Positions 41,873 to 60,446 of a stretch of 60,556 bases of DNA are shown piece by piece (the stretch's first letter is position 1; the number at the start of each line of letters is the position of its first letter). Source of the stretch: Candidatus Ratteibacteria bacterium (lineage in GTDB: Bacteria; CAIJMQ01); NCBI GenBank assembly GCA_028715665.1, contig JAQURI010000002.1:1-60556 (forward strand). Reading direction: 5' to 3'. The notes beneath the pieces are model-generated. The model ran no database searches. It was not told where the DNA came from and worked only from the letters and a program-made list of their open reading frames with translations. Position numbers and translations under genes: made by a program.

Positions 41873-41897
41873 ACCCGAAAAAAAAAATGTTCCGCCC

Positions 41898-42134
41898 TTA
41901 TGCTACCAAGATATTATTTTTAACAATTTCAATGCCGTTTTCAGAGATATATCGTGTTTCTATGTCTTTTGGTGATGCTCTATTTTTCAACATTTTGACC
42001 CGCTCCTTGGGGCTCGACACAGAATCTCTCCTATTAATTGTTTCTGGGTTCCATTTCGACCAGAGAATACATCCGTTACAATCTCCTGTTCCAAGCAGTT
42101 GATTCTTACTCTTACAGTTTCCGCAGTATTTCAT
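41898..42134 (-). CDS. Cys-rich hypothetical protein
   Basis: 78 aa; CGNCKS...CNGC; the ATG is immediately preceded by a type-2 motif. Confidence 0.5.
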   Translation of the reverse strand: MKYCGNCKSKNQLLGTGDCNGCILWSKWNPETINRRDSVSSPKERVKMLKNRASPKDIETRYISENGIEIVKNNILVA

Positions 42135-42172
42135 CTCAATCGCTCCTGTGCGTTATAGCACCCGAAAAAAAA
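42135..42172 (-). promoter_or_regulatory. type-2 cassette-boundary motif
   Basis: minus-sense TTTTTTTTCGGGTGCTATAACGCACAGGAGCGATTGAG + ATG(42134). Confidence 0.65.
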
Positions 42173-42242
42173 TAACTATTAAAGATGTTCCGCCTTTAAT
42201 GATTTTTCTACTTCCAAAATTAAATCATCTGCGATTCTTCTA

Positions 42243-42440
42243 TTATGACTTCCGGGGTTTGTTGCATATCCAGTACCTCTTTTTTCTTAGACCATATATT
42301 ACACTCGATACAAAGCTTCCAATAGTTAATATTATGACGTTTCTGATTACGTTTTCGTCTGTTAGTAGATACAGAACCAATGCCGTCAGCACTAAGAATA
42401 TTGCAGTTTTTCCCACTGCGTCTTTTAAGATTTCCTTCAT
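42243..42440 (-). CDS. small membrane protein
   Basis: 65 aa, two TM helices; GGAGGCAGACA precedes the ATG; preferred over the overlapping 42220-42543 frame. Confidence 0.45.
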   Translation of the reverse strand: MKEILKDAVGKTAIFLVLTALVLYLLTDENVIRNVIILTIGSFVSSVIYGLRKKRYWICNKPRKS

Positions 42441-42476
42441 TGTCTGCCTCCACTACTGACTTTTTCGTATTGGATA

Positions 42477-42641
42477 TTACGTTTTTTTCTGGCGGTCTTC
42501 TCTCCATTCTCCAGCCGGATTGACCAAATGTATCATAATACATCCCTCATCCTGATAAACAGAAAACTGTTCATCCTTTTTTGGTCTGGCTTCTTTCAAC
42601 CAGTGATTCACTGCATTTCGCACATCGGTTTTGTTTAACAT
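42477..42641 (-). CDS. small hypothetical protein (54 aa)
   Basis: hand-translated MLNKTDVRNAVNHWLKEARPKKDEQFSVYQDEGCIMIHLVNPAGEW... Confidence 0.4.
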   Translation of the reverse strand: MLNKTDVRNAVNHWLKEARPKKDEQFSVYQDEGCIMIHLVNPAGEWREDRQKKT

Positions 42642-42648
42642 TGTAGCC

Positions 42649-42858
42649 TCATTTTAACATCGCTACAAGTTCATCATCTGTGACCTTGCCTTTTCTCACC
42701 ATATCGTTTATGATGGTCGTCGAATCAACTGGCTTTCCGTTTCTGAGGACATGCCCGGCGGAATCTACCTGATAGAATTCCTGACAGAACTCCCTTATCC
42801 TGCCATTCGTTGCATCGAAATTTATTTTATCTCCGTCAATTAGTCCCATCTTTGCCAT
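42649..42858 (-). CDS. hypothetical protein
   Basis: 69-aa ORF in chain. Confidence 0.5.
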   Translation of the reverse strand: MAKMGLIDGDKINFDATNGRIREFCQEFYQVDSAGHVLRNGKPVDSTTIINDMVRKGKVTDDELVAMLK

Positions 42859-43345
42859 CTCCTGTTTCCGATATTTCGGTGTTCTTTTTATTCATTTCAA
42901 GCATTCGTTCGAACATTTCTCCGGCCTGACTGTTGGTTCCCTGATACTTATATGCCAGCAATCCGATTAACGCTGAATCCAGAGACGCATAGCCTTTGCC
43001 GGTATCCATGAAATTTATGTATGTGTGGAAAATATGATACGGGTGTGGTTCTGATGCGATATCATGAGGAACCTCAAGAATTATATATTCTCCGTTGTTG
43101 ATTATAAAATCGTTTATGCTCCTGTATTTGCCCAATTCCAGCTTGAGATATATTATCTTTTCTGGAAGTGCTGTTTCGCTGATATCTTTTTCGGTCACTA
43201 CTGGCAGGTTATTAAGAAGATAGTTGCCTGTTCCGGCTGCGAGGAAGTGGGTCAATCCACCCATGCATTTCGCTTCTTCAATTAACTGACCGAGTTCCCC
43301 GGTCGTGTTAAGTTTTACGATTCGTAATGGTTTTAAATTTCTCAT
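42836..43345 (-). CDS. hypothetical protein
   Basis: 169-aa ORF in chain. Confidence 0.55.
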   Translation of the reverse strand: MRNLKPLRIVKLNTTGELGQLIEEAKCMGGLTHFLAAGTGNYLLNNLPVVTEKDISETALPEKIIYLKLELGKYRSINDFIINNGEYIILEVPHDIASEPHPYHIFHTYINFMDTGKGYASLDSALIGLLAYKYQGTNSQAGEMFERMLEMNKKNTEISETGDGKDGTN

Positions 43346-43377
43346 AAATATTTCTCCATAGTGTACGTGAAGTGTAT

Positions 43378-44031
43378 TCAGGACGACGAGTTATCGCTAT
43401 CTGTTCTGAACCTCATTCTTTCTGCCCTTTGTTTCCGTCTGAGGGCTTGGACGTATTCAATTGAGCCTTCCGGTTTTATGGCTGGTATATTCTTCAGGTA
43501 TTCCGGGGCAACTTCGTGCATCCATTCAGATAATGCTACGATGAAATTGTCATAGTTCTCATGCTCCCGGTCTCTCCGGTTGCCTATCTCATCTATCAGC
43601 CCTGCACATCGCAGGATTTCGTTATGCAAATCCCGCCTAAGTTCTTCCAGACCCATTATCCTATGTGCGTCCAGAAGTTTACCGGTCTTTGAGTCCTGTA
43701 ATCTCCCTGAAACGTGGAAGAAGTATCGTTCCAGCATTTCTCTCGGCACCATTATACCTGCTAAGGTTACGTATTTTGAGTCAAGATATTCCCTATGTGT
43801 TTTTAGCCTGATTTTGAATTCCATATCCGTGACTTCGAAATATTTTGGATTTGACGAATCTATTATTGTTGCATCACCGTCCAGAATTGCACCTATCTGA
43901 GAGCTTGAGATGCCTCTGAAACATTTTAGCATCTCTATTGCCTCTGTGGTTTTCCGTTCGAAATGAAATAGTTGCCGGGCTAAATCCACAATGAATTTCG
44001 AAGTCACTGAAAAATGTGTGTCCTGTTCCAT
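43378..44031 (-). CDS. hypothetical protein
   Basis: ATG at 44031 preceded by AAAGGAGAA; the track TTG start at 44082 is less likely. Confidence 0.6.
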   Translation of the reverse strand: MEQDTHFSVTSKFIVDLARQLFHFERKTTEAIEMLKCFRGISSSQIGAILDGDATIIDSSNPKYFEVTDMEFKIRLKTHREYLDSKYVTLAGIMVPREMLERYFFHVSGRLQDSKTGKLLDAHRIMGLEELRRDLHNEILRCAGLIDEIGNRRDREHENYDNFIVALSEWMHEVAPEYLKNIPAIKPEGSIEYVQALRRKQRAERMRFRTDSDNSSS

Positions 44032-44374
44032 AGCGATTTCTCCTTTATCTATGATTTTTTTAGTCTTCTTCTGGTACGTCAATACAATTTAGGCCATTCG
44101 AATTTAGTGAATCCACATAAACGTGACCAGATACCAGATTTACGGCAATTGTATTTGTGTTTATAGTATTCATAAGGTGTTTCTTCTTTTAGATTTATGA
44201 TTCCGGCTGCACATTTACTGCTGTTATATTTGTTATTAATTCAGTGTATGCTTCCAGTAATATTTTTTTCGCTTTTTCTGGCTGCTTGCTATCTATTTAA
44301 TTGATAGCATCTTGCAGTTTTGTGCTTGCTGAATTAATAACATCGTTTGATATTAGTACGTATTTCATGATACA

Positions 44375-44764
44375 TCAGTCCTCAGCGGTTCCTGTTTTTC
44401 CATGTATCTCTTCTTCTGTATATAGCTGTGAAACTTCACATCGGGCGCAGATTCGCGTTCCGTCTTTGCGCCTAATAACTGAAGGTAATCTCCGTTCGCA
44501 GACGTTGCAGGCATTATGTAGCCATTTATCTTCGATTTTTAGCAGGTCTTCTGATTCTACAATACCTGTTCCATGTATTATCCTCTGCTTGCTTGCTATC
44601 TCTTGGAATATCGATTGTGCGGTCATTAATATTGCTGTTTCGATTGCATCTTCAGTGGTCTCTTCTATATCTAAAGCTGCTCTGGATTCTTCCGGGATGC
44701 CGTTCCTTTTTACAAGTTGCTTCCATACAGCTTCCTTTATTTCTCTTGGATGCCGTGTCTCCAT
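44375..44764 (-). CDS. hypothetical protein with C-terminal zinc ribbon
   Basis: 129 aa; CNVCERR...CARCE. Confidence 0.55.
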   Translation of the reverse strand: METRHPREIKEAVWKQLVKRNGIPEESRAALDIEETTEDAIETAILMTAQSIFQEIASKQRIIHGTGIVESEDLLKIEDKWLHNACNVCERRLPSVIRRKDGTRICARCEVSQLYTEEEIHGKTGTAED

Positions 44765-44765
44765 T

Positions 44766-45146
44766 TTAAGCCTCCTTTTTCTGTTCCGATGCTATTCGTT
44801 TCAACGTTCTTATTGAATCTTTTTTCGTTATAAATTTTCCACAATGAAAACAGAATCCATTGCGGTCTGTTGTTCCATGACCTTCTTTTGGACAGGCCAA
44901 TACATCTGTTACCAGACTGCTCAATGCTTCACCGAACGGGGTGTCCCTTTCTATTATCCGTGCCGGAATTCCATTCTTGTCGTTGAACCCGGCTACTATG
45001 AAAATATTATTGTGAAGCCTTGCACGCATCCACTCGTATTCCTGTGGGTCTCCGATGCTGCCCTCATTCTGTTTCTGGAGATGTATAATGTATCGTTCTA
45101 TTGTTTTTAGAGATACATCCCTGCCAGATAATGTTATTGTGTTCAT
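44766..45146 (-). CDS. hypothetical protein
   Basis: the ATG at 45146 directly follows a type-2 motif; the track start at 45170 translates the motif itself (MKHTGAIE). Confidence 0.55.
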   Translation of the reverse strand: MNTITLSGRDVSLKTIERYIIHLQKQNEGSIGDPQEYEWMRARLHNNIFIVAGFNDKNGIPARIIERDTPFGEALSSLVTDVLACPKEGHGTTDRNGFCFHCGKFITKKDSIRTLKRIASEQKKEA

Positions 45147-45186
45147 TTCAATCGCTCCTGTGTGCTTCATAGCACCCGAAAAAATT
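45147..45186 (-). promoter_or_regulatory. type-2 cassette-boundary motif
   Basis: minus-sense TTTTTTCGGGTGCTATGAAGCACACAGGAGCGATTGAA + ATG(45146). Confidence 0.65.
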
Positions 45187-45311
45187 TAGTCGGGCTTGTA
45201 TTTTTCGTAAAACTCTTCGTCCGACATCAATAATATCTCAAGAATTTTTAATCTTTTTGGTATTTTCACAGAATACCAATCTGTTTTCGTGAGGGTTTCT
45301 GCTGAGTTCAT
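45186..45311 (-). CDS. small hypothetical protein (41 aa)
   Basis: hand-translated MNSAETLTKTDWYSVKIPKRLKILEILLMSDEEFYEKYKPD; ATGA overlap with the upstream stop. Confidence 0.4.
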   Translation of the reverse strand: MNSAETLTKTDWYSVKIPKRLKILEILLMSDEEFYEKYKPD

Positions 45312-45697
45312 TTTTGCTCTGAAAATTCTATGCAGTATATTTCCCTGATTGTTGCCCTTATACGCTCTCCCCAGTTTATAAATCCTTGAAAGCTACACCA
45401 TCTATCTAATAGCTGGTCATTGCTCATTCCATTGATTTGCGAGTCTTTTGATGTATCTGTTGGGTCAAGGCCGAAACTTTCTCTAATATCTGATAGAGTG
45501 GAGTCGTGAAGTCGTTCAGTATTTGGCACGGGTCTCTCTGCTGGACAGGTTATATATGCTGTCAGGGCTGCATTTTTCATTGTGTTGAGAATATGGTCTG
45601 GAATGTCTGTATTGTGTTTTTGTATCCAGATGTACGCTTCAATTACCTGTTTCTGGTTCTCATTCAAGTTGTCTTTTGGTTTATCTAATAAGCTCAT
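45308..45697 (-). CDS. hypothetical protein
   Basis: 129-aa ORF in chain. Confidence 0.55.
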   Translation of the reverse strand: MSLLDKPKDNLNENQKQVIEAYIWIQKHNTDIPDHILNTMKNAALTAYITCPAERPVPNTERLHDSTLSDIRESFGLDPTDTSKDSQINGMSNDQLLDRWCSFQGFINWGERIRATIREIYCIEFSEQK

Positions 45698-45893
45698 TCG
45701 CTTCCTCCTTAACCGGTGTATATATCCATGTTAATCTTGTGTCTCCTTGCTTTTTTTCTACCATTCCCTTTTCTCTCAGGCGTTCGACCTGCTGGGTTAC
45801 TCCCCAATTTACGCCGAGTTCGTCTTTAATCCCGTTTCCCGTAATCCCTTCCGGATGGTTTTTGATTATTTTCCATATGTCGTCCTGTGCCAT
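45681..45893 (-). CDS. small winged-helix DNA-binding protein
   Basis: 70 aa; IIKNHPEGITGNGIKDELGVNWGVTQQVERLREKGMVEKK. Confidence 0.6.
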   Translation of the reverse strand: MAQDDIWKIIKNHPEGITGNGIKDELGVNWGVTQQVERLREKGMVEKKQGDTRLTWIYTPVKEEANELIR

Positions 45894-46016
45894 TCTTTTT
45901 TTCCTGATACTTCTTTTTCCTATTTGTTCCTGTGAAGCACCCGACGTGTTCCAATGGCGGCTTTAATGGGCTAAACCCCTATTCGCTCGGCTCGGAGCAC
46001 CCTAAAAAATAAAATA

Positions 46017-46370
46017 TTATCCTGAAACCATTTTCATAACAATCTCATGGTCACATGCCTTCGGTTCAGTTTCAGGTTTTTCTTCTGGTATAAAATCGTG
46101 AGTGGACTCTTCTTGTTTAAGTTCCGGGATTTCTCCCGGCTGTTTCGGCGTATTCATTCCAGCCCAGTCCCTTACCATGTCCCTAATGCTTTGCCAGTCA
46201 TCATATGAACCGACAATCATCCGGCCAAACTCCGGGTCGGGTTGTACCTCATCGGGCGTCCGTTCAGTTACCAATACTGGTTTTGGTTCTTCAATGACTT
46301 TATTTATTTGTAGTCTTCCTATGATGATTCCACTGAATTTCAGGTCTTTTATCGTGTCAATGAGTAACAT
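46017..46370 (-). CDS. hypothetical protein
   Basis: ATG at 46370 sits just after the upstream stop; the track TTG start is at 46385. Confidence 0.5.
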   Translation of the reverse strand: MLLIDTIKDLKFSGIIIGRLQINKVIEEPKPVLVTERTPDEVQPDPEFGRMIVGSYDDWQSIRDMVRDWAGMNTPKQPGEIPELKQEESTHDFIPEEKPETEPKACDHEIVMKMVSG

Positions 46371-46371
46371 C

Positions 46372-46542
46372 TTAGTGGCTCCCAATGTTTAGAATTCCTT
46401 CGTCAGCGAGTTCTTTCATTATCTTATTGTACAGTTCAATAAGTTCGTATACATCTTTTATTGGTAGTTTGGCGTTTGGGTCGAGTTCTGCGTCTTGTAT
46501 TGTCCACATGTGGTCGCCTACAAAATGTTTTTTTATTCTCAT
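46372..46542 (-). CDS. small hypothetical protein (56 aa)
   Basis: hand-translated MRIKKHFVGDHMWTIQDAELDPNAKLPIKDVYELIELYNKIMKEL...; preceded by CAGGACTGATTGAAAT (3' half of the type-2 motif). Confidence 0.4.
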   Translation of the reverse strand: MRIKKHFVGDHMWTIQDAELDPNAKLPIKDVYELIELYNKIMKELADEGILNIGSH

Positions 46543-46549
46543 ATTTCAA

Positions 46550-46810
46550 TCAGTCCTGTTTGGCATTACTGCCCTGTGTTCTGGCCTTATATATCTTATA
46601 TACATACCATATCAGCCGTTTAGTTTCGATTAATATCCAGAATAAAAAAATTCCAGCTATTATAAAGCTAATAAATGAAGATGCAAGTGCAGTCTTGTCA
46701 TTTGCCACTTCAGGCGTTAATGTTAGCGCATTCATAACCCCTGAGACCACACCAAAAACAGCCAGAAGATAAATGAAAAGTCTATACTTATCATAACGTT
46801 CTATTTCCAT
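46550..46810 (-). CDS. small membrane protein
   Basis: 86 aa, two TM helices; the ATG directly follows a type-2 motif. Confidence 0.5.
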   Translation of the reverse strand: MEIERYDKYRLFIYLLAVFGVVSGVMNALTLTPEVANDKTALASSFISFIIAGIFLFWILIETKRLIWYVYKIYKARTQGSNAKQD

Positions 46811-46849
46811 ATTTCAATCGCTCCTGATGCGTTATAGCACCCAAAAAAA
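46811..46849 (-). promoter_or_regulatory. type-2 cassette-boundary motif
   Basis: minus-sense TTTTTTTGGGTGCTATAACGCATCAGGAGCGATTGAAAT + ATG(46810). Confidence 0.65.
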
Positions 46850-46852
46850 TAG

Positions 46853-47323
46853 TTAAAGCAGATTAAAAACGTCTTCCTGCTTTGCCCGTCTATTCAAATA
46901 CTCCCAATCTATTTTATTAGTGTATGCCCGCTGGAGCATCTTTGCCTGCTCACAATCGTATGTGGATTTCCAGAATCTACAAGCACATAAACGGTCTACT
47001 ATCAGGTCTTCTATAGAGATTATCTTGATTTTTTTTCCTTTATACATCAAAATCTTACATCTCTCCCCGTGTAGTGCATCCTTTGGGATTTCGATATAGT
47101 GTGGATATTTATAGAAATGCCTGCCCGTTTCTTTAAATCCCCATTGCCTTAACATCGGCACCAATACACTTCTGTCTGCAATCAAATCAAGGTCTTGGCT
47201 TCTTGATGCCCCTCTTGTGTACAATTCAACCGCAGAGCCACCAACAAGGATTGGTTTTGTTTCGTCCGGGAAATACGAACTAATCTCGGCAAGAAGGTCA
47301 AACTTTCGTCTTAATCGTCCCAT
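46853..47323 (-). CDS. minimal nucleotidyltransferase-fold protein (DUF6036/AbiEii-like)
   Basis: 156 aa; ILVGGSAVELYT..SQDLDLIAD and ISIEDLIVDRL motifs typical of small archaeal NTase toxin-like proteins. Confidence 0.6.
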   Translation of the reverse strand: MGRLRRKFDLLAEISSYFPDETKPILVGGSAVELYTRGASRSQDLDLIADRSVLVPMLRQWGFKETGRHFYKYPHYIEIPKDALHGERCKILMYKGKKIKIISIEDLIVDRLCACRFWKSTYDCEQAKMLQRAYTNKIDWEYLNRRAKQEDVFNLL

Positions 47324-47484
47324 GGTAGTATTTCTACTATTTCATTTCCTTTAAATATTACTCCTTCTGAAACAGCAGCCTCCGCTAATATACAGAATAC
47401 CTCTAACTTCTGCGGGTCTCGTGGTCTTGTCCTTACCAGCCCGTCTGTTTTGTCTATCATGATATTTGTCTTATTTAATTTCAT
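47311..47484 (-). CDS. small protein upstream of and overlapping the NTase gene (possible cognate partner)
   Basis: 57 aa from the ATG at 47484; 13-nt overlap with the NTase ORF. Confidence 0.45.
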   Translation of the reverse strand: MKLNKTNIMIDKTDGLVRTRPRDPQKLEVFCILAEAAVSEGVIFKGNEIVEILPWDD

Positions 47485-47536
47485 AATATTTATACCCTTT
47501 CCGATGCTTGTTTTTTGCACCCGGAAAAAATTGCAT

Positions 47537-47556
47537 CTCCCTGTACGTACAGGGAG
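47537..47556. terminator. perfect 20-bp palindrome ctccctgtacgtacagggag
   Basis: lies 1 nt 3' of the stop of 47558-48250; followed (minus sense) by a T-run and a GGGTGC box; its centre is TGTACGTACA. Confidence 0.5.
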
Positions 47557-47557
47557 A

Positions 47558-48250
47558 TTAGAGGTTGATATATGCCATTCTTTGTTTTGTGAAGCTCAGG
47601 TCTTTTGTGAGTTCTGCTTTTACTGCTGCAATATCGTCTGTTAATATCTTTTCCCTGATTGTTTTAAGCTGTAAATCAACTTCGGGGTCGTTCAGGACGT
47701 TCACGGATTTCAGCCGTTCTATGAGATTGAGCATTGCATTCTTGCTTTTATCTGGCAATTGTCCTGCTTTCTCTCCTATTTTCTCAATGAGTTCGTACAT
47801 GATTTTGTACCGGATTGCTGAAATTACCTGTCCGTATAACTCCCCGCGCTGGACATCGTGAATGTTCAGTTCGAGAAAAATTACCTCAGCATGAAGGTTT
47901 TTCGCCAGTTTCTGGAAATCCGTTTCTGCACTTGCTGTGATTTCACGGATTTCTTTTTTCTGCGATTCATTACATAAATGTAATGGGTTCTTGAATTCCG
48001 GCGGGAAGTCCACGGTCTTGTCTCTTATCTGACCCATGTGCTTTTCCCTGATTGCGCTTATCTTATTCCTTACGTTTTTCGGATAAGTGAAATCGATTTC
48101 TCGTTTCATATCAGAAAGTTCTTGTGAACTGTCTATTCGGTTCGGTGATGCGTATTGTGTCTGCACCACGAACACACGTACTGCCGACTGTTCAGCCGGT
48201 TTTTCCTGTGTATCCGTTCTTGCCTGTGTTTCTGCCTGTGTTTCTGCCAT
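47558..48250 (-). CDS. hypothetical protein
   Basis: 230-aa ORF; the ATG directly follows a type-2 motif; AETQAETQA N-terminal repeat. Confidence 0.6.
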   Translation of the reverse strand: MAETQAETQARTDTQEKPAEQSAVRVFVVQTQYASPNRIDSSQELSDMKREIDFTYPKNVRNKISAIREKHMGQIRDKTVDFPPEFKNPLHLCNESQKKEIREITASAETDFQKLAKNLHAEVIFLELNIHDVQRGELYGQVISAIRYKIMYELIEKIGEKAGQLPDKSKNAMLNLIERLKSVNVLNDPEVDLQLKTIREKILTDDIAAVKAELTKDLSFTKQRMAYINL

Positions 48251-48292
48251 ATTTCAATCTCTCCTGATGCGTTATAGCGCCCGGAAAAAAAA
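48251..48292 (-). promoter_or_regulatory. type-2 cassette-boundary motif
   Basis: minus-sense TTTTTTTTCCGGGCGCTATAACGCATCAGGAGAGATTGAAAT + ATG(48250). Confidence 0.65.
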
Positions 48293-48299
48293 GTTAAGT

Positions 48300-48473
48300 C
48301 TATTTATTAACCTTAAACTCTATCTTAACTTCTTCCCCCATATTATATTTCTTTCTGATTGCGGTTCTTGCAGCGTTGAAATATAATTCCATTTTCTCTG
48401 GGTTTTTTTCATCAACATATTCGCTCGGAAAATCTTCGTCGATTTTTCCTGTGACTCTTAAAGTTAATTCCAT
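48300..48473 (-). CDS. small hypothetical protein (57 aa)
   Basis: hand-translated MELTLRVTGKIDEDFPSEYVDEKNPEKMELYFNAARTAIRKKYNMGEEVKIEFKVNK; the ATG follows a type-2 motif. Confidence 0.45.
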   Translation of the reverse strand: MELTLRVTGKIDEDFPSEYVDEKNPEKMELYFNAARTAIRKKYNMGEEVKIEFKVNK

Positions 48474-48516
48474 AGTTCAGTTGCTCCTGATGCTTTAGTA
48501 TAGCACCCGAAAAAAT
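48474..48516 (-). promoter_or_regulatory. type-2 cassette-boundary motif (variant)
   Basis: minus-sense TTTTTTCGGGTGCTATACTAAAGCATCAGGAGCAACTGAACT + ATG(48473). Confidence 0.6.
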
Positions 48517-48566
48517 AAAGAAAAGAAGTCTGATATGTCAAATTTCCGACTTGTCTTTTTTTAATA

Positions 48567-48860
48567 TTATGGTTCTGTGACTACGTATACGTACTCGCAG
48601 GGACACCGATATATGTTGTGTTTATTAATATCTCCGTCCATATTTATTTCCGCAGCCACTGTTTCTTTCACCAGCATTTCTCCACATACTGGACATAGTT
48701 TATCTATACGCAGTTTTCGCCAACTAAATCTCGTTTTTGGTCTGTAACATTGGTCATCGTATCTCATCTGTAATGATTTGAGACTCTTGAACTCTTCTAT
48801 TTTCTTCGACTGTTCTTTTTCTCTGGCTATACATTTCTCTTTAAACAATTCTAAATTCAT
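48567..48860 (-). CDS. zinc-ribbon protein
   Basis: 97 aa from the ATG at 48860; CPVCGEM...YRCPCEY; the track start at 48893 translates the motif. Confidence 0.5.
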   Translation of the reverse strand: MNLELFKEKCIAREKEQSKKIEEFKSLKSLQMRYDDQCYRPKTRFSWRKLRIDKLCPVCGEMLVKETVAAEINMDGDINKHNIYRCPCEYVYVVTEP

Positions 48861-48892
48861 TTCAATCGCTCCTGTGTGTTTTATAGCACCCA
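48861..48892 (-). promoter_or_regulatory. type-2 cassette-boundary motif
   Basis: minus-sense GGGTGCTATAAAACACACAGGAGCGATTGAA + ATG(48860). Confidence 0.65.
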
Positions 48893-49006
48893 ATAAGGTT
48901 TCATCCTCATCACGCGTTCACATGAGGCTTACATCTTACTACATTGTCTGGGTTCTTCTATTAACCGTCGTTAACAGCTTACACCCGTGCCGTAGCACCC
49001 TATAAT

Positions 49007-49041
49007 GCTTCACAATTAAGGAATAAGGGGAATTGTGAAGC
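49007..49041. repeat. inverted repeat gcttcacaatt / aattgtgaagc (13-nt loop)
   Basis: same 11-bp stem and flanking GGGTGC boxes as 41808-41872. Confidence 0.65.
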
Positions 49042-49045
49042 ACCC

Positions 49046-49073
49046 GAAAGGGGATGGATTCTTATCCCCTTTC
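49046..49073. repeat. 10-bp perfect hairpin gaaaggggat / atcccctttc
   Basis: 8-nt loop; directly abuts the 49007-49041 hairpin. Confidence 0.6.
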
Positions 49074-49277
49074 ACCTCTTACCTATCCTGTGTCTTTCCT
49101 ATCTTTTTTCCTATCCGGTGCGAGTTCCATTGCACCCGTGATGCTTCTCTTTTTTTGAAGGTGACTTGTTGTCGATAGAGCAGCATCTATTAGTGTCACG
49201 GGTGGAGAAACCGTGGCTGACTTTTTTACGCGCGTGAGAATCATATTAATCCATGACACGCGCACCCGAAAAAAATG

Positions 49278-49487
49278 TTATATGCCGTATATTTCGGCTG
49301 ACCATAACGCTATTCTTCTTTGTGCTTCTTTTTCAGAGTCTGTTAAATCATCTCCGTGCCTGTTTGATGATAGTAGTTTTCCCTGAGTGAGCACCTGAAT
49401 TGTTTTATCTGCTGGTATGAATGATATCTGAGCTACAGATATTATTCCTTTGAGTTCATCATATATTTGTTTAGTTATTGTTTTCAT
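49278..49487 (-). CDS. hypothetical protein
   Basis: 69-aa ORF; the ATG directly follows a type-2 motif. Confidence 0.5.
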   Translation of the reverse strand: MKTITKQIYDELKGIISVAQISFIPADKTIQVLTQGKLLSSNRHGDDLTDSEKEAQRRIALWSAEIYGI

Positions 49488-49516
49488 TTCAATCGCTCCT
49501 GTGCGTTATAGCACCC
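49488..49516 (-). promoter_or_regulatory. type-2 cassette-boundary motif
   Basis: minus-sense GGGTGCTATAACGCACAGGAGCGATTGAA + ATG(49487). Confidence 0.65.
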
Positions 49517-49534
49517 GCCCCGCTGACCCTTGTA

Positions 49535-49557
49535 CAATATATCGTAATATGTTGTAC
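49535..49557 (+). promoter_or_regulatory. type-1-like promoter motif (plus orientation) facing the ORF-poor GC-rich region
   Basis: CAATATATCGTAATATGTTGTAC shares TATCGTAAT..ATGTT with the type-1 consensus; embedded in the inverted repeat tgtacaa/ttgtaca. Confidence 0.4.
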
Positions 49558-50203
49558 ATGCGAGGCTTGGGTTCCGTTTAACCAGCACTTTGCGTGCTTA
49601 ACGGAAATGGAATTCCAGTAAAGGGAGAGGGAAAGTCCAACACCATACGAGAGGAGACTCTCCGGGTGCTTTTTGTCAGAATAATCCGACGCACTCGTAT
49701 TTCGGCACAGGGTCGCAGCCTGTGCCCTCTATTCCTTTTGCGGTTTTCGTCTTTGTCTGTCACTAACCCTACTGCGTTAGCAGTCCTTATTACTAAGCTA
49801 CTGTGTTTTTCATCACAGTAACCCCGGAATTCCGTACTTTCGAGCGTCATTTGCGTGCTGCCGTCGGGATTAACCTACCTCAGCACAACATCAGCAAAGG
49901 GGGGCTGTCTTGCCGCTTTGTGTCTGCCTTTGTGCGGTGTGTTAAACCGCCCCCTGGCAAACCCCTTATCAATTTCAGTCTCGCAAACATCACACCCGAA
50001 GGGATTTTTGGTCGGGTGCTCATAACTTGGGAGTTGCCCCCTTTCAGGGGCATCTTCCTGTACGTACATATTAGTTGATTGGTTGATATATACCTTACGG
50101 TTGGTAGTATATATCGTGGGACAAGTTGGGTTTATATAGTCCTTTGGTTGGGACGAGTCGTGAGACTGTTGGTTTATATACTTTAATTATTAAATAATGT
50201 TTT

Positions 50204-50470
50204 ATGACAACAGTTAGACATAACCTGAAGGCTGACGATGAAGCTCTTGCTTTGATTAATAAAGTTCGTGCTGCCCTTAGACAGCGTGGTGTAGGCAATC
50301 CAGATACGTCTGATGTTATTAGGGAGTTATATTCAGAAAGGAATCTCAGTCAAAAACTGTGCAGCCGGTTAATTAATTTTGCCGGTGAATATGGTGATAA
50401 CGAGGGGGCTGTCGATGTCCTTGACAGGCTCCTGCATGAACTGGCTGACCTGCGAGCTAAAACTCACTAG
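50204..50470 (+). CDS. hypothetical protein (possible ribbon-helix-helix)
   Basis: 88-aa ORF; N-terminal TVRHNLKADDEALALINKVRAAL resembles a strand-helix RHH start; convergent with the RNA ligase gene. Confidence 0.45.
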   Translation: MTTVRHNLKADDEALALINKVRAALRQRGVGNPDTSDVIRELYSERNLSQKLCSRLINFAGEYGDNEGAVDVLDRLLHELADLRAKTH

Positions 50471-51542
50471 ACTTGAATAGTTCAAAGTCCGGTTTAAGTG
50501 CCTGCCAGATTAATTGTGTTGCTTTTTTGCCATCTCCGTCAATGAGTGCAAATACCGCCCCGCTGATAGGCTTGGCGTGGTTCAGGATGTATTCTGCCTG
50601 CTCCCTCCGGGTCGTGAGACTGCTGGCCTCCTGTGCAACTCCCTGTGCCTTTGTCATAAGTGCATCTTTTGCTGTCGTCAGGTCTTTCTCGCATGACCGT
50701 ATCGAATCGTACATTTCATCCGGAGCAATAGCAATGATGAGGTCAAGTGATTGCCCCGCCTTTAGTGATTCCCAGATATCCCTTGCTGATAAGCCAGTCA
50801 GGATTTTATGAATTCTCCGGTAATCGTCTGATTTGATTTTGACTCGCAGGCCAGTATCGTATTTCATTACCAACCCTTCCCGCTCGTCTCCTTTGAAATC
50901 TTTCAACCAATTGATGGCATCATCGATTTCTGTGAACGGAAATTCCTCTGCATACGAAAAACCGAGTTGTTGGGCTTCCCTTATATAATCCAATTCGTCT
51001 TTTCCGTTGTTATTTAGAACTGCCAGTAGAATAAGTTCCGACCGTTCCCCGTAATCAATAACGATTTTACTTCCCGGATACACTATTTCAAAACAATATG
51101 TGTATCCTTCCCAGAAGTCGTCCATCGAGAATCCTTTTTTCCGAATCCAGTCTGTCGCCCACACTGCATATTCAGATTTGAAAGCTCCTCTCGTAGAGAT
51201 TGCCGATAGCTTTTTCTCCGGATACAGAATTCCCAAAACCCCGTCATATTTTTCTGAGAAGGTCGGGTATCCCAACCTTTTGCGGTTCGGAAGATTTTCT
51301 ATTTTCGTTTCCGGGACTTCATTGAGATTAAAGAATTTCTTAAATGGACGAGCCACTATTTCTCCATCTGAATCCAGTATCAGACCCCGACACATCTTTG
51401 TATACTCGTCCCAGAGAGAATCGTACTGCGTCCGTTTCGTATAATTGTATATCGTCAGGTCGAGGTCTGGATGTCTGGTAGCTTTTATTCGGCCTGATGC
51501 TATACGGGCATTGAGTTCGTTTATATTTATTGTGTTTTTCAT
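50457..51542 (-). CDS. ATP-dependent RNA ligase, T4 Rnl1-like
   Basis: 361 aa; MCRGLILD..GEIVARPFKKFFNLNE, nucleotidyl-transfer lysine motif EKYDG, FEIVYP, EGLVMKY..KIKSDDY all parallel T4 Rnl1. Confidence 0.85.
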   Translation of the reverse strand: MKNTININELNARIASGRIKATRHPDLDLTIYNYTKRTQYDSLWDEYTKMCRGLILDSDGEIVARPFKKFFNLNEVPETKIENLPNRKRLGYPTFSEKYDGVLGILYPEKKLSAISTRGAFKSEYAVWATDWIRKKGFSMDDFWEGYTYCFEIVYPGSKIVIDYGERSELILLAVLNNNGKDELDYIREAQQLGFSYAEEFPFTEIDDAINWLKDFKGDEREGLVMKYDTGLRVKIKSDDYRRIHKILTGLSARDIWESLKAGQSLDLIIAIAPDEMYDSIRSCEKDLTTAKDALMTKAQGVAQEASSLTTRREQAEYILNHAKPISGAVFALIDGDGKKATQLIWQALKPDFELFKSSEF

Positions 51543-51726
51543 ATTTTATTTTTCAAGTGTTTTTTAACTGCCTCAAAAATCATTTTGTGTCCTTCTCTAT
51601 TCGGATGAAGACCGTCTGCCAATAAATATTCATGGTCTTGTTCCTTTTCGAACTGCTTGAAGATATCGATGTAATGAATGTTTAATCTACTGTCACCCCA
51701 TACTTTTTCTTTACAACGTGATTTAA
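51539..51726 (-). pseudogene. SGNH/GDSL hydrolase, C-terminal fragment (displaced by cassette insertion)
   Basis: frame reads (L)KSRCKEKVWGDSRLN...LLADGLHPNREGHKMIFEAVKKHLKNKI*, i.e. block V DxxH; no start codon; its stop overlaps the RNA ligase ATG. Confidence 0.8.
51719..51726. repeat. target-site duplication tgatttaa (left)
   Basis: identical 8-mer at 52375-52382, immediately outside both terminal repeats. Confidence 0.8.
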
Positions 51727-51746
51727 GGTTCTGTTAAGTTGTCGGG
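51727..51746. repeat. left terminal inverted repeat ggttctgttaagttgtcggg
   Basis: the reverse complement of 52355-52374 differs at one position. Confidence 0.85.
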
Positions 51747-51759
51747 TGCTGGATGGGGC

Positions 51760-51777
51760 TGTTAACCATCGGGAGTT
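51760..51777. repeat. left subterminal inverted repeat tgttaaccatcgggagtt
   Basis: 16/18 match to the reverse complement of 52324-52341. Confidence 0.65.
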
Positions 51778-51817
51778 TTTATTACTAATTAATTAAAATA
51801 AGATATTGAGGTATAAA

Positions 51818-52339
51818 ATGAATAACATGGTATTACATCCAGATATTATATTAAAAAGAAGTTCAGTAGCGGGATTCGGTCTATTTGCTTCAAAAGATAT
51901 TCCAATCGGAACAGTAATATGGAAATACGGAAACGTCAGGGTATATACAAAAGAGCAATACGATAAATTCAGTGAGCGATATAAAGCAATTCTAAGGCAT
52001 TTCTGCTATGAGGGTAGTAACGAGACATTAGTTTATTGTACCGACAATAGTAAATATTTTAATCATTCCTGCGACCCAAATACAATGTCCATAGATACTG
52101 AAAAAGACATCACAATCAAAGATGTTTTCGCAGGAGAAGAACTCACTTACGATTATGGGTATTGGTATCTCAAATGGAATGATGCTTTTATGTGCCACTG
52201 TGGCTCAGATGATTGCAGGCGATACATCAAAAGAGAACCACAGGAATCACCAACTATAAGAAATTTAGAAACAATGGTAAAGAAGGCATGGGAAAACTCA
52301 ACGAACGTAATCCAACCCCTATTAACTCCCGACAGTTAA
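51818..52339 (+). CDS. SET-domain protein lysine methyltransferase
   Basis: GFGLFA, YFNHSCDPN, GEELTYDYGY and post-SET CHCGSDDCRRYI motifs; ATG at 51818 preceded by GAGGT (the track TTG start is 51806). Confidence 0.9.
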   Translation: MNNMVLHPDIILKRSSVAGFGLFASKDIPIGTVIWKYGNVRVYTKEQYDKFSERYKAILRHFCYEGSNETLVYCTDNSKYFNHSCDPNTMSIDTEKDITIKDVFAGEELTYDYGYWYLKWNDAFMCHCGSDDCRRYIKREPQESPTIRNLETMVKKAWENSTNVIQPLLTPDS

Positions 52340-52341
52340 CA
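52324..52341. repeat. right subterminal inverted repeat
   Basis: aactcccgacagttaaca; encodes the last residues and stop of the SET ORF. Confidence 0.65.
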
Positions 52342-52354
52342 AGGGTTCTTAACT

Positions 52355-52374
52355 CCCTACAACTTAACAGAACC
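52355..52374. repeat. right terminal inverted repeat ccctacaacttaacagaacc
   Basis: supplies the artificial ..GSVKL* end of the truncated hydrolase ORF. Confidence 0.85.
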
Positions 52375-52869
52375 TGATTTAATAAGTTTATTATAATACA
52401 ATATATACTTGTTTAAATACGACCTGTTATCGTCCCACGGTACTGGTGTCGTTCTGGATTCATCTACCATTCCTGCACCAACGAAGAGCATATAGTTAGA
52501 ATACCTTTTGGCGGCGTTAATTAAATAGCATAACGTAGTATCAAAGTCATACGGACTGGTAACGAATCGGTTCTCTCTCTTGAGGATACAACAGTCATTC
52601 ACTCCAATATTGAAAATGAAAAATATGTTTTCACCTTCATCCTTTTCGACCAATTTGGCATCAGTCTCGTCCTTAAACCGGTTCAATACATCAGTTATGG
52701 TATTACCTGATATTCCAAGATTATATATCAATGGAAAATCAGAGTTCCAGAATTCGGGCTTTGATACTGTTTTTTTATCAAAATATTTTCTCAGCCGCTG
52801 AACCCACCCGCCTTCTATATCCCACGCTCCGTATGTGATACTGTCACCAAAAACAAGTATTTGTGTCAC
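52357..52869 (-). pseudogene. SGNH/GDSL hydrolase, N-terminal fragment (truncated by cassette)
   Basis: MTQILVFGDSITYGAWD (block I GDS), NLGISGNT (block II), FNIGVNDC (block III); the ORF ends inside the right TIR. Confidence 0.8.
52375..52382. repeat. target-site duplication tgatttaa (right)
   Basis: identical to 51719-51726. Confidence 0.8.
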
Positions 52870-53330
52870 AAATTACACCGACTTTTGATTGGGCTATCCG
52901 ATTTAAATAACCCTCTTCTTATCGGTTCAATCTTTCCTTTATCCGCTAGGTTCTCCAGTGTTATGTACAGCCTATTTGCAAATAAGGAACCGTCTATGCC
53001 ATGATAGTTTGCTCTTCCGAGCGCAAGTACCATATCGCATAAGTCACCAAACTTTAATACCCCACCATTTTCTTTGAGTAAACCCATTACAACATCCTGC
53101 CTGATATCTTCGCATAATGTGGAAAGCATGGTGTCTGCATCTTTTGACAGACCTTCCCTTTTATAACAAATGCCTTTATCTCCTCCGCTTGCCACTGTAA
53201 TATAAATGTAATAATCCGGCATACAATCGGTCGGTTTTGGTTCACTGTCTGATTTGATATGATACGTATTTGCCGATACCAGTCCGAATCCGATTTCGTT
53301 CAAATCTTTTAAAAACTGTGCGAATCCCAT
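52866..53330 (-). CDS. hypothetical protein (C-terminal wHTH-like)
   Basis: 154-aa ORF; 4-nt overlap with the hydrolase start. Confidence 0.55.
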   Translation of the reverse strand: MGFAQFLKDLNEIGFGLVSANTYHIKSDSEPKPTDCMPDYYIYITVASGGDKGICYKREGLSKDADTMLSTLCEDIRQDVVMGLLKENGGVLKFGDLCDMVLALGRANYHGIDGSLFANRLYITLENLADKGKIEPIRRGLFKSDSPIKSRCNL

Positions 53331-53333
53331 GCT

Positions 53334-53612
53334 TCACTTCCCGTAATATGTTATTGAATAGAACTTCCCGTTCGTTTCTGCGAGAATGTGATGTTCCACA
53401 CATTTCTCCAGTGTCGATTTCAAAAGGTCTTCAGTATATTTTATTCCTTGATTCAGTTCGTTTTTCAGTGCTTCAACCGTAACGCCTTCGTGCGGCATCC
53501 CTATTGGGATTTTCCTGTTGATAACAAATATTATCCCTTCAATGCTTATCGCCAGCCGTACTTCTTCCGGTGTGAATCCTAGTTTGTTTAGGAGATATTC
53601 CAGTTTTGGCAT
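53334..53612 (-). CDS. hypothetical protein
   Basis: 92-aa ORF in chain. Confidence 0.5.
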   Translation of the reverse strand: MPKLEYLLNKLGFTPEEVRLAISIEGIIFVINRKIPIGMPHEGVTVEALKNELNQGIKYTEDLLKSTLEKCVEHHILAETNGKFYSITYYGK

Positions 53613-53681
53613 GTTTGAGAAAAAAATATGTTAAAGATGCTCGGACGTTGTTTTATACGAACATCTTTACGTGCAGGTTGT

Positions 53682-53969
53682 TTACTTCTTCGGGGTCTCG
53701 ATGCCGACCTTTTTCACGAACGGTTTCTTTATTTTCTCTGGCATCCATGCAGGTCTTTTTTCCGGTGCGGCAACGATTGCATGATAACCTGTGAATACGT
53801 GTATTTTCTTCGTGCCACGTTCCCTTAACCTGATTGTTTCTGGAGCTTCTTTCGTTCCGTTACCGGCATTAGCTGCTTTCAGTGCCGCTTGTCTTGGGGC
53901 TGTGCCTGTGAATGTTCCGCCTTCAATTCCATCTTTACCTACAATAACGTAGTTTTTCGTTTCACTCAT
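53682..53969 (-). CDS. chromatin protein MC1 homologue
   Basis: from the ATG at 53969: MSETKNYVIVGKDG..GTFTGTAPRQAALKAANAGNGTKEAPETIRLRERGTKKIHVFTGY..APEKRPAWMPEKIKKPFVKK, colinear with Methanosarcina MC1; the track start at 54059 is too far upstream. Confidence 0.9.
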   Translation of the reverse strand: MSETKNYVIVGKDGIEGGTFTGTAPRQAALKAANAGNGTKEAPETIRLRERGTKKIHVFTGYHAIVAAPEKRPAWMPEKIKKPFVKKVGIETPKK

Positions 53970-54153: not shown

Positions 54154-55188
54154 ATGCCAGACAATAAAGAAATAAACCGCCTTATTGGTGTAAAAATCGG
54201 CAGCACGTATTCTGTTTCTGCTGCTCGTGAAGAACATGAAACTCCTGTAACGAATGTGATTAAATCGTGTGTTTCTCCAGTTACCGACCCCGATACTACT
54301 GTTTTGAATGATACTTATATCGGTGTTGAGCGACCTGATTCGGTATTCCCGCTCGATAAGGGTATTATCGAAAATGATGCAAATATCCTGTTAACGATAG
54401 CGATTATTAATAAACTTAATATCCCTCCCGGAGCCTATGTCGTTGCAGCCATTCCTGCTCTTGAACTAACCGATGGACGGGCGCGGTTGAAGAGGGCTCT
54501 TCTGGAATCACTCAAACCTGCGAAGATGGTATTGTCCCCGGAAGTATATTGTGGGGCGGTTACTGCTCTTGGATATTCTGAGATTAACGGGAAGCAAAGA
54601 CTGAAGGCACTCCATTCTGATTTCCTTGCCCTTAACCTTGGGTCAACCACAACTGAAGTCCTTATCGCTCTTCATGGGGAACGTAAATATCTCAAAGCGT
54701 TCACGAAGGTTTGCGGGAATATGGTCGATTCTGAACTATTCGATACATTGCATAACACGTTCGGAAAAGTGCTAATCACCATGCCCCAGATAAGGGATAT
54801 AAAAGAACAGTTCAATATGATAAACCAAAAAGACGTCATAGTGAATGTCTTGACCCATAGCGACGGTGTGAAAAAAGTTCCCGTTCAGAAAGTCGTTATG
54901 AGTGTACTTGATAATTACGTGTTCAATGTATCCGATTTACTGGTGAATATCCTGAAAAACAATCTTACTCCTGAGACTATTGCCCAAGTCCTTGATACCC
55001 CTATCGTCCTGACCGGTGGAATGAACAATATTCCCGGATTGGCTGAACGGATTGAAAAGAAAATGCGTGAACTACTGCATTACGAGAAACTGACCGTCTT
55101 GAAACAGGTCGATGGACATATCGCCCCGGCAATTGGTGCACTTACTCTGTCCACTGAAATTAACTGGGAGAAGATTCCGGTTGCTTAA
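54154..55188 (+). CDS. actin/MreB/ParM-superfamily ATPase
   Basis: 344 aa; phosphate-1-like IGVKIGSTYS, phosphate-2 ALNLGSTTTEV, adenosine motif IVLTGGMNNIPGL. Confidence 0.7.
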   Translation: MPDNKEINRLIGVKIGSTYSVSAAREEHETPVTNVIKSCVSPVTDPDTTVLNDTYIGVERPDSVFPLDKGIIENDANILLTIAIINKLNIPPGAYVVAAIPALELTDGRARLKRALLESLKPAKMVLSPEVYCGAVTALGYSEINGKQRLKALHSDFLALNLGSTTTEVLIALHGERKYLKAFTKVCGNMVDSELFDTLHNTFGKVLITMPQIRDIKEQFNMINQKDVIVNVLTHSDGVKKVPVQKVVMSVLDNYVFNVSDLLVNILKNNLTPETIAQVLDTPIVLTGGMNNIPGLAERIEKKMRELLHYEKLTVLKQVDGHIAPAIGALTLSTEINWEKIPVA

Positions 55189-55795: not shown

Positions 55796-56245
55796 ATGCC
55801 TGACGATAATGAAGATTCTATAGTCTGGATATTTATGTTTTTTTGCCCTTACTGTAAAAGCAAAGATACTATCTGGTATGGAAAAAGGTATAATAAAACC
55901 GAAATTAAATCGAAACGAAAATGCAAATCCTGTAGACGGGTTTATACAAATCAACCGTCCAGAGCTAAAGGTAAAAAGAATACATTGGAATCAATAAATC
56001 TCGCTATCAATATCGCAAAAGACCATAGCCTGAGAGAGACCGAAAGTATTCTGAAGGAGAAATATGGAATCCAAATAACCCATGCTTCGATATCTAATTG
56101 GAAAAAACAGCATGAGGCATTGCTTAAAAAAATTGAGATTGTAGAGAAAGATGACCCGGATTGGATATATAAACCGATATTGAAAACAAATACACGACCT
56201 GATTATGATGGAAATAAAATAGAAGCTGAGTGGATGGACGTATGA
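55796..56245 (+). CDS. zinc-ribbon + HTH protein (IS1/IS1595 transposase N-terminal-like, no DDE domain)
   Basis: FCPYCKSKDTIWYGKRYNK...KRKCKSCRRVYT, then an HTH-like SLRETESILKEKYGIQITHASISNW. Confidence 0.55.
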   Translation: MPDDNEDSIVWIFMFFCPYCKSKDTIWYGKRYNKTEIKSKRKCKSCRRVYTNQPSRAKGKKNTLESINLAINIAKDHSLRETESILKEKYGIQITHASISNWKKQHEALLKKIEIVEKDDPDWIYKPILKTNTRPDYDGNKIEAEWMDV

Positions 56246-57989: not shown

Positions 57990-58009
57990 GGTTCTGTTAA
58001 GTTGACGGG
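57990..58009. repeat. solo copy of the SET-cassette terminal repeat
   Basis: ggttctgttaagttgacggg, 19/20 to the left TIR at 51727; no inverted partner found nearby. Confidence 0.6.
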
Positions 58010-60197: not shown

Positions 60198-60446
60198 TTA
60201 CACTCTCTGCAATTTTTTCTCCATATCAGCCAACTCTTGTTTTAGTTTACTAATTTCTGTTTTTATCCGGTTTGCTTCTGGAGATGTGCTGGTCGTTGCC
60301 TTCTCGTGTTCCTCTATTTGTAATGGGGTTCCAAGTTTATCCATCTTAAACTTTCGGGAAATATGAGTTGGGGTACTGATAGTCATCCCGGATTCCCATT
60401 TTTTATGTACTTCCTTGTATTCAAAATCGGGTTCTGTCAAGTCCAC
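60198..60446 (-). CDS. hypothetical protein
   Basis: 82-aa ORF (GTG start), coiled-coil C-terminus. Confidence 0.45.
   Translation of the reverse strand: MDLTEPDFEYKEVHKKWESGMTISTPTHISRKFKMDKLGTPLQIEEHEKATTSTSPEANRIKTEISKLKQELADMEKKLQRV

Follow-up and report, generated by a model that had tools for sequence, protein, structure and literature searches.

A transposase-less insertion cassette carries a SET-domain gene into the apparent MC1 operon of an archaeal mobile element

We analysed a stretch of 60,556 nt from contig JAQURI010000002.1 (GenBank assembly GCA_028715665.1), hereafter the window, with all 101 of its open reading frames (ORFs) screened. The focus was on two neighbouring genes, one for a small SET-domain protein and one for the chromatin protein MC1, which an earlier interpretation made from the letters alone (the sequence-only reading) had taken for a substrate-and-writer pair. 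Our main finding is that a mobile insertion cassette of 648 bp, whose one passenger is the SET gene, lies antisense within what reads as the MC1 operon of an archaeal extrachromosomal element. The two genes appear to differ in history and most likely came to lie close together by accident, when the cassette was inserted; to this overall reading we assign a probability of about 0.6. Its structural and evolutionary part is considerably firmer, and we hold it with high confidence. That SET modifies the abundant basic nucleoid proteins of any host it enters, with no dedicated partnership with the element's MC1, is a more tentative proposal.

The cassette and its target comprise the following features, in window coordinates.

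51727-52374, no strand: mobile insertion cassette of 648 bp with the SET gene and an AT-rich promoter-like leader, recognised by inverted repeats, target duplication and an ORF restored on excision
51727-51741, plus strand: left terminal inverted repeat (TIR), GGTTCTGTTAAGTTG, exact match
52360-52374, minus strand: right TIR, reverse complement of the left, exact match
51719-51726, no strand: left target-site duplication (TSD) copy, TGATTTAA, directly abutting the left TIR
52375-52382, no strand: right copy of the TSD, TGATTTAA, directly abutting the right TIR
52375-52869, minus strand: N-terminal fragment of an SGNH/GDSL hydrolase gene; the called ORF (52357-52869) runs into the TIR and stops there
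51539-51726, minus strand: C-terminal fragment of the hydrolase gene, encoding catalytic block V (DGLHPNREGH) and ending in a stop codon that overlaps the start codon of the RNA ligase gene
51818-52339, plus strand: gene for a predicted SET and post-SET protein-lysine methyltransferase, 173 aa, Pfam SET 58.8 bits

The SET cassette is a transposition-type insertion with target duplication that disrupts the hydrolase gene. Perfect 15-bp TIRs bracket the SET gene, and the truncated hydrolase ORF, whose final six codons and stop are contributed by the inverted repeat, matches Pfam Lipase_GDSL only over positions 1-152 of 208 (46.8 bits). Removing 51727-52382 (656 bp) in silico yields an in-frame hydrolase of 224 aa, which includes the DGLHPNREGH block and matches the same profile over positions 1-208 of 208 (76.2 bits); intact homologues of about 211-224 aa number in the hundreds and align with 97-100% of its length. 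The closest of these, P0216 on contig L158, is 224 aa long, 67% identical and colinear across the insertion point, and the gene immediately downstream of its own encodes an RNA ligase with 77% identity to that of the window. There is no TIR motif at the hydrolase insertion point in L158. Because an intact, colinear hydrolase stands there beside the ligase with no repeat motif, L158 can be regarded as an empty-site homologue. The sequence-only reading had proposed that SET arrived on a separate mobile cassette, and the TIRs, the TSD, the restored ORF and this homologue bear it out.

The SET gene is the only ORF within the cassette. No transposase is encoded inside it, and searches with PHROGs and Pfam found neither a transposase nor an integrase among the window ORFs. 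Mobile insertion cassettes are defined as transposase-less units with inverted repeats of the insertion sequence (IS) type and a passenger gene (PMC3129680); with IS-type ends, a passenger gene and no transposase, the unit therefore fits this definition.

The perfect TIRs, the intact TSD and the two undecayed hydrolase halves point to a very recent insertion. Such a cassette might be a selfish or neutral hitch-hiker that benefits itself and is neutral or harmful to the element, with SET playing no role there. Its youth would suit this explanation, as would its absence from every relative and the damage that it causes: inserted antisense, it breaks a translationally coupled operon, the hydrolase is lost, and the effect on the RNA ligase is probably polar. 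Yet the catalytic motifs are invariant in the SET clade, which indicates purifying selection somewhere, and the insertion is present in both independent assemblies of the element, the second of which (Logan assembly L007) is 100% identical over 13 kb spanning both cassette junctions. On balance, we consider a mere hitch-hiker rather doubtful.

By their outer half, the cassette ends resemble those of the IS6/IS26 family. The outer nine TIR bases, GGTTCTGTT, equal the first nine of the family consensus GGTTCTGTTGCAAA (PMC6807381), with the GG tip and the cTGTt motif present, and the family produces 8-bp TSDs (PMC6807381, PMC7986276). Positions 10-14, in contrast, read AAGTT and not the consensus GCAAA, which means that the inner 'caaa' motif and G10 are missing. 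For archaeal IS6 members, the reported relationship to the TIR consensus is a loose one. Because the inner half differs, the IS6 assignment of the ends is provisional. IS1-type ends were set aside; IS1 repeats begin GGTGATG... and fit worse than the IS6 consensus. The cassette shares with other mobile insertion cassettes (e.g. MIC231) and with IS6/IS26 a transposase-less build, IS-type ends that start with GG and contain CTGTT, and an 8-bp TSD. In size it is comparable to a small archaeal IS6 member (~700 bp versus 648 bp; PMC6807381, PMC7986276). It differs from IS6/IS26 in the inner TIR half (AAGTTG against GCAAA), in its SET passenger and in its archaeal-element host. A review of the IS6 family mentions two miniature inverted-repeat transposable elements and describes no passenger-carrying cassette (PMC7986276).

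Similar ends are found beside SET homologues in three other contigs. L037 looks cellular, with genes for archaeal flagellin and DUF356, and has the end 82 nt upstream of its SET gene. In L155, where a tyrosine integrase gene adjoins, the end lies 13-22 nt past the SET stop codon, and in L029 it overlaps the stop codon itself. Each of these contigs has a single recognisable end in unrelated surroundings: a convincing right end is absent from L037, L155 and L029 lack the left one, and no transposase adjoins any of the three loci; the complete cassette occurs only in the window. The four SET genes with such ends are spread over three sub-branches within the tree of the SET clade. When IMG/VR was scanned for the TIR 15-mer, the 98 single hits did not exceed chance level, and the window holds no cognate autonomous IS with these ends.

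Two further features of the window bear on the TIR motif.

57990-58004, plus strand: solo TIR 15-mer, matching exactly, with a repeated promoter-like box 7 nt away
55796-56245, plus strand: orf149, with a zinc ribbon and a helix-turn-helix; NCBIfam transpos_IS1 24 bits, transpos_IS6 20 bits

Near copies of the 15-mer are present at 14234-14248, 2093-2107 and 60430-60444, all on the plus strand and intergenic like the exact copy at 57990-58004. At up to three mismatches the window contains 8 matches against 2.1 expected, a number that none of 100 shuffles reached. Two of the solo copies are situated upstream of the promoter-like box, which reads GATATCTTTAT... on the minus strand, at a distance of 7 nt, and the site at 14234 has about 50 nt in common with the left end of the cassette. 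The solo copies could be relics of old insertions or a regulatory site. The matches of orf149 to IS1 and IS6 transposases are both far below cutoff and concern their N-terminal, DNA-binding regions; orf149 has no DDE domain, and Pfam gives only zinc-ribbon hints. Perhaps it is what is left of a transposase, domesticated or decayed, and binds the GGTTCTGT... motif.

If the motif were a regulatory site, SET might have been captured not by transposition but by recombination between the element's own GGTTCTGTTAAGTTG copies. The four further places at which the motif occurs (one exact, three near), their single orientation, the promoter box beside two of them, and orf149 as a potential motif-binding regulator would all agree with such a capture. 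An exact 8-bp duplication together with precise ORF restoration is, nevertheless, a hallmark of DDE transposition, not of capture by homologous or site-specific recombination. Moreover, the empty site in L158 lacks the motif, and the same ends stand beside SET homologues in unrelated contigs. Recombination capture is therefore highly improbable.

The SET gene is preceded by a GAGGT ribosome-binding site (RBS) 7 nt before the ATG, and its product covers the whole Pfam SET profile PF00856 (positions 1-105 of 105, 58.8 bits, E 8e-16; cutoff 22.4 bits). The SET and post-SET domains of human KMT2D/MLL1 in the PDB align with it end to end (E 4e-14). It has the GxG motif (GFGLFA), the NHSC motif (NHSCDPN), ELTYDY with the catalytic Tyr, the post-SET CxCx4C motif (CHCGSDDC) and a C-terminal extension of 35 aa. 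Because every catalytic motif is present, we infer that it is an active S-adenosylmethionine-dependent protein-lysine methyltransferase. In a 13-sequence alignment of the closest relatives, the GxG, NHSC and ELTYDY motifs and the post-SET cysteines show no variation. Such invariance across a clade with 65-75% identity suggests purifying selection on enzyme function somewhere. An AlphaFold model from this alignment (mean per-residue confidence, pLDDT, 59.7; catalytic core below 50) is too poor for fold comparison.

The SET clade is small. When 1.84 billion cluster representatives were searched exhaustively, only six came up at E<=1e-30, and the nearest relatives in GTDB species genomes, in Methanomicrobiales, are 31-34% identical, with none above 34%. 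In IMG/VR no relative exceeds 38% identity, and none of 85 SET relatives is a Methanosarcina-labelled protein. Besides the window, 15 loci carry close relatives (65-75% identity), and for these the ±10 kb around SET were inspected. Most have 25-34% GC, against 40% for the window. Apart from the SET genes of L037, L155 and L029, the close relatives are ordinary co-directional genes on large virus-like contigs of 72-134 kb (among them Ga0376277_0000941, JBINOA010003490.1 and Ga0172379_10000820), which encode a D5-type primase, an HNH protein and a CCA-adding enzyme; no terminal-repeat motif was seen beside SET in them.

One of these virus-like contigs (L004, L005 and L006: GCA_043956695.1 JBINOA010003490.1 and Logan SRR22315508 and SRR22315509) is 116 kb long and has 33% GC. 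It is unrelated to the element and comes from sequencing runs that contain the element. Its SET gene is resident, belongs to the same clade, is 65% identical and has no repeats. The contig is a possible source pool for the cassette passenger. Several SET contigs (L001, L002, L036) also encode CCA-adding/poly(A)-polymerase-type enzymes with HD domains, and the element has its RNA ligase; these genes hint that tRNA repair may be among the functions of such archaeal elements.

The MC1 gene has a different setting, with the following neighbours.

53682-53969, minus strand: MC1 chromatin protein gene, 95 aa, of an element-specific clade, Pfam MC1 107.7 bits
53970-54153, no strand: divergent MC1/salactin promoter region, conserved in four elements, containing GCGTATATATACTTTAAAT and the RBS GGAGGAAT
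54154-55188, plus strand: salactin (actin-like) gene, Pfam Salactin 131 bits, NCBIfam salactin 137 bits
53334-53612, minus strand: orf92, directly downstream of MC1, with syntenic counterparts of 59-69% identity in L050, L051 and L052
52866-53330, minus strand: orf154, accessory gene between orf92 and the hydrolase gene, overlapping the hydrolase start by 4 nt
50457-51542, minus strand: T4 Rnl1-type RNA ligase gene, the last of the operon, downstream of the insertion, Pfam RNA_lig_T4_1 75.6 bits

The MC1 protein matches Pfam PF05854 over positions 1-93 of 96 (107.7 bits, E 4e-31; cutoff 23 bits) and aligns over residues 2-91 with the cellular MC1 of M. thermophila (PDB 1T23, E 8e-35; also 2KHL and 2NBJ). 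The family assignments made in the sequence-only reading are thus sound for both genes, as the Pfam scores and the PDB matches agree at levels well outside chance; its coordinates for the two are exact, and the distance it gave, 1.3 kb, is 1,342 bp when measured. When the list of DNA-bending residues in PMC6776556 is read against the 1T23 alignment, the equivalents of Arg25, Gln26, Pro72, Trp74, Met75, Lys86 and Ile89 are kept, and those of Lys22-Gln23 are changed to Thr-Ala. Besides this substitution, the window MC1 differs from that of M. thermophila in being extrachromosomal, in belonging to a separate clade and in standing beside salactin.

On the minus strand the genes follow in the order MC1, orf92, orf154, hydrolase and RNA ligase, with 4-nt overlaps between orf154 and hydrolase and between hydrolase and ligase. 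The SET cassette reads as lying antisense within this apparent MC1 operon. Salactin is divergent to MC1 and syntenic in L050, L051, L052 and L157. The intergenic region between the two has a TATA-like GCGTATATATAC box, GGAGGAAT before the inner ATG, and GGAGG upstream of MC1. Because the conserved RBS and the TATA element precede the inner ATG, we fixed the MC1 start at 53969.

Four contigs besides the window carry related parts of this operon (five loci: L050/L051, L052, L157 and L158). The block of salactin, divergent from MC1 and orf92, is found in L050/L051, L052 and L157, where identity to the window is 64-77% for salactin, 69-74% for MC1 and 59-69% for orf92, and the hydrolase-ligase end of the operon is found in L158. 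In L157, MC1 is followed by a gene of orf92-like size; this conserved gene of about 92 aa after MC1 has a winged-helix-like C-terminus. The RNA ligase is syntenic in L050/L051 (62% identity) and in L158, whereas only the N-terminal part of orf154 is common to L052 and L158. The stretch from orf92 to the ligase varies among relatives; the insertion site of the cassette is in an accessory region.

In a neighbour-joining tree of the 120 best hits, made with no bootstrap, the eight closest MC1s, including that of the window, form an exclusive clade of eight tips. This places the window MC1 with element-specific and not host-derived proteins, a distinction for which the sequence-only reading had looked to phylogeny. 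For four of the eight, the window's included, an adjoining salactin gene is confirmed. MC1 is a resident, conserved gene of a family of archaeal extrachromosomal elements of roughly 40-44% GC, the relatives of the window having 42-44%. Salactin with MC1 and orf92 could form an actin-type module for DNA segregation or organisation, with MC1 or orf92 as the DNA-binding partner.

MC1-type proteins are also encoded elsewhere by viruses or mobile elements. A search of IMG/VR with the single MC1 sequence gave no match, and one with an alignment as query found homologues on 8 contigs, which are 33-56% identical at best. Like these and like the MC1-like protein of Mimivirus (bioRxiv 10.1101/2024.02.22.580433), the window MC1 is a virus- or mobile-encoded protein of a DNA-condensing type. 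It differs in that all of them are distant and that none of the 8 IMG/VR loci pairs MC1 with salactin.

The proposal of a substrate-and-writer pair draws on Go1-SET (AAM32541) of M. mazei. According to accounts (PMC3980110, PMC6776556) of the work of Manzur and Zhou (2005), this enzyme methylates MC1-alpha in vitro, "likely" at Lys37. As far as those accounts go, both cases combine a small SET enzyme and an MC1 in one genome, and the window MC1 is a canonical family member with 63-66% identity to the MC1s of Methanosarcina and Methanoperedens. The differences lie in the MC1 loop, in the window enzyme, which has a post-SET zinc motif, the 35-aa extension and a clade mostly on virus-like contigs, and in the location of both genes on a mobile element, with SET on a cassette inside it.

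Were the element to use SET to methylate its own MC1, and so to tune genome compaction or expression, the two genes would form a dedicated pair. Both are intact, only 1.3 kb apart and provided with promoter-like sequences of their own, and MC1 retains Lys31 and Lys40. Against such a pair, the reported acceptor is gone: Methanosarcina MC1 (P0170) reads ANRGKGTK with Lys37, and the window MC1 reads ANAGNGTK, without Arg35 and Lys37 and with Asn in place of the lysine, which counts in part against the sequence-only reading. The absence is real but unremarkable, since position 37 varies across the MC1 family (N 42, G 31, K 20 and E 16 of 120 sequences); Lys31 is invariant in the same set, and Lys40 is present in 117 of the 120. 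Furthermore, co-occurrence fails in both directions. SET is absent from the four other contigs (five loci) with parts of the MC1 operon, and MC1 is absent from the ±10 kb around SET at the 15 other loci. Base composition differs too, with 36% GC in the cassette and in the SET coding sequence, 46% in the MC1 coding sequence and 40% in the window. Together, the failed co-occurrence and the differing composition indicate separate histories for SET and MC1. With SET being, in addition, a recent antisense insertion that disrupts a gene of the MC1 operon, the pair is unsupported and a dedicated partnership improbable; the comparative evidence points to coincidence of insertion. A functional pairing would be possible only by analogy.

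SET could instead act on the host, by methylating the loop lysine of the host MC1 and thereby remodelling host chromatin, while the element's own Asn37 MC1 would be refractory and serve the element DNA. This would agree with the RGKG loop of Methanosarcina MC1 against AGNG in the window, with the separation of the element clade from cellular MC1s, and with the precedent of a chlorella virus whose vSET methylates host histone H3. The agreement weakens on closer comparison. Position 37 is variable with Asn the commonest residue, and the Asn of the window needs no special explanation; the MC1s of Methanoperedens, equally near, have Gly37; and five of the eight element-clade MC1s have Lys37 with no SET nearby. 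Moreover, the SET clade resides mostly in contigs of 25-34% GC, whose hosts are probably not Methanosarcinales-type MC1 users. A takeover of host chromatin through MC1 is thus also quite unlikely.

Several observations weigh against our reading that the closeness of SET and MC1 is accidental and that a single IS6-like transposition brought it about. No cognate transposase was found, and the inner TIR half is off the IS6 consensus. A simple single insertion does not account for five solo copies of the TIR motif that share one orientation in the element. The large SET contigs were inspected over ±10 kb only, and an MC1 gene could sit farther away on them. By position, a cassette within 1.3 kb of MC1 and inside its operon has a chance of roughly 5%, and selection for SET-MC1 linkage may lie behind the insertion site. 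In addition, the near-invariant Lys31 and Lys40 of MC1 could be acceptors even though Lys37 is gone.

Under the reading of separate histories, the following course of events would be expected. MC1, the resident first gene of a minus-strand operon divergent from salactin, would most likely bend and compact the DNA of the element, or that of the host, because the DNA-bending residues of cellular MC1 are kept; perhaps it acts in concert with a salactin-based segregation system. A transposase supplied in trans, and not encoded in the window, would have put the SET-only cassette antisense into the hydrolase gene, and the insertion would have duplicated 8 bp of the target. SET would then be expressed from the cassette's own AT-rich promoter-like leader.

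A bolder extension would make SET a portable chromatin writer, which moves among archaeal viruses, mobile elements and cells on IS6-like cassettes and methylates MC1-type proteins of the host, while the element MC1 without Lys37 escapes and organises the element DNA together with salactin. We regard this combination as a long shot. If it were true, the writer would be an archaeal, MC1-based counterpart of the epigenetic takeover by viral vSET. The vSET of Paramecium bursaria chlorella virus 1 has no post-SET domain and targets H3K27 of histone H3. Both vSET and the window SET are minimal SET enzymes on a mobile or viral genome that could act on host chromatin proteins; the window SET differs in its post-SET domain and in a carrier element that is not shown to be a virus.

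SET proteins, MC1 and mobile insertion cassettes were all known as kinds. New are a SET passenger in an IS6-like cassette of an archaeal element, a small SET clade that is mostly found on virus-like contigs, and an element-specific MC1 clade tied to salactin. The window offers a clean case in which a gene for a protein-modifying enzyme travels alone on an IS-type cassette, one that has no transposase and sits in an archaeal mobile element. Together with the like ends beside three other SET genes, it therefore suggests a concrete route for the spread of SET among archaeal viruses and cells. Horizontal transfers of MC1 have already been inferred for archaea (PMC7613761), and the element-specific MC1 clade with salactin makes mobile elements plausible vehicles for them. 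The pairing of MC1 and salactin suggests a module for DNA organisation or segregation that can be tested. Furthermore, the SET enzyme, an MC1 without Lys37 and close relatives with Lys37 are reagents for the question of whether archaeal SET proteins regulate MC1 chromatin.

The sequence-only reading had also held that MC1 constrains the host lineage, which is reasonable but soft. Among named cellular MC1s, those of Methanoperedens, Methanosarcinaceae and Methanosarcina come closest, with 63-66% identity, and the window GC of 40% is in keeping with these groups, which makes a Methanosarcinales-type host a reasonable assumption. The constraint is soft because the element MC1 forms a clade of its own; MC1 is also found in haloarchaea and marine group II archaea. 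The related contig L157 carries an AAA ATPase gene with an intein and a LAGLIDADG endonuclease (13659-16562) and a multihaem-cytochrome-like gene (9733-10362), and the latter hints at a Methanoperedens- or ANME-type host (ANME, anaerobic methanotrophic archaea).

Among the genes of the element are those for PCNA, an HNH protein, YopX, an NrdD-like protein and the RNA ligase. With PHROGs and Pfam, no capsid, terminase, integrase or transposase was recognised in the window. Its ends have no terminal repeats, and it contains neither tRNA genes nor Rfam matches and no DNA match to a phage database. The element could be a virus or a plasmid.

A stretch of about 550-600 nt at ~49520-50110, read on the minus strand, has no credible ORF and a higher GC fraction (0.45). 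Counterparts are present at L050:12190-12860 and L052:2590-3240, with long blocks conserved at the DNA level. RNAalifold predicts 137 pairs for the three sequences, 26 of them with compensatory changes, and Rfam gives no match to the stretch even at E<=1. The stretch probably encodes an undescribed structured RNA of the element family. At intergenic positions within 41370-49520 (repeat families D1, D5 and D6), a motif of about 35 nt, GGGTGCTATAACGCACAGGAGCGATTGAAATG (minus strand), is found ahead of eight or more small genes of the minus strand. With its TATA-like box, GGAG and start codon, it looks like a shared promoter/5' leader of an early-gene block.

Far from the cassette, an ORF of 595 aa (26380-28167, minus strand) resembles Fsx1, the fusexin of archaea, and HAP2, the gamete fusogen of eukaryotes. 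Its match to NCBIfam Fsx1 extends over about 360 positions (67.2 bits, E 9e-19) and falls far short of the equivalog cutoff; with Pfam HAP2-GCS1 the score is 23.1 bits (cutoff 27.4), and the HAP2 structure PDB 5OW3 matches at E 0.04. The ORF is flanked by genes for PEGA-domain proteins (25161-26387 and 28601-30553, both on the minus strand). A fusexin on a Methanosarcinales-type element of 40% GC could be of more interest than the SET-MC1 finding itself.

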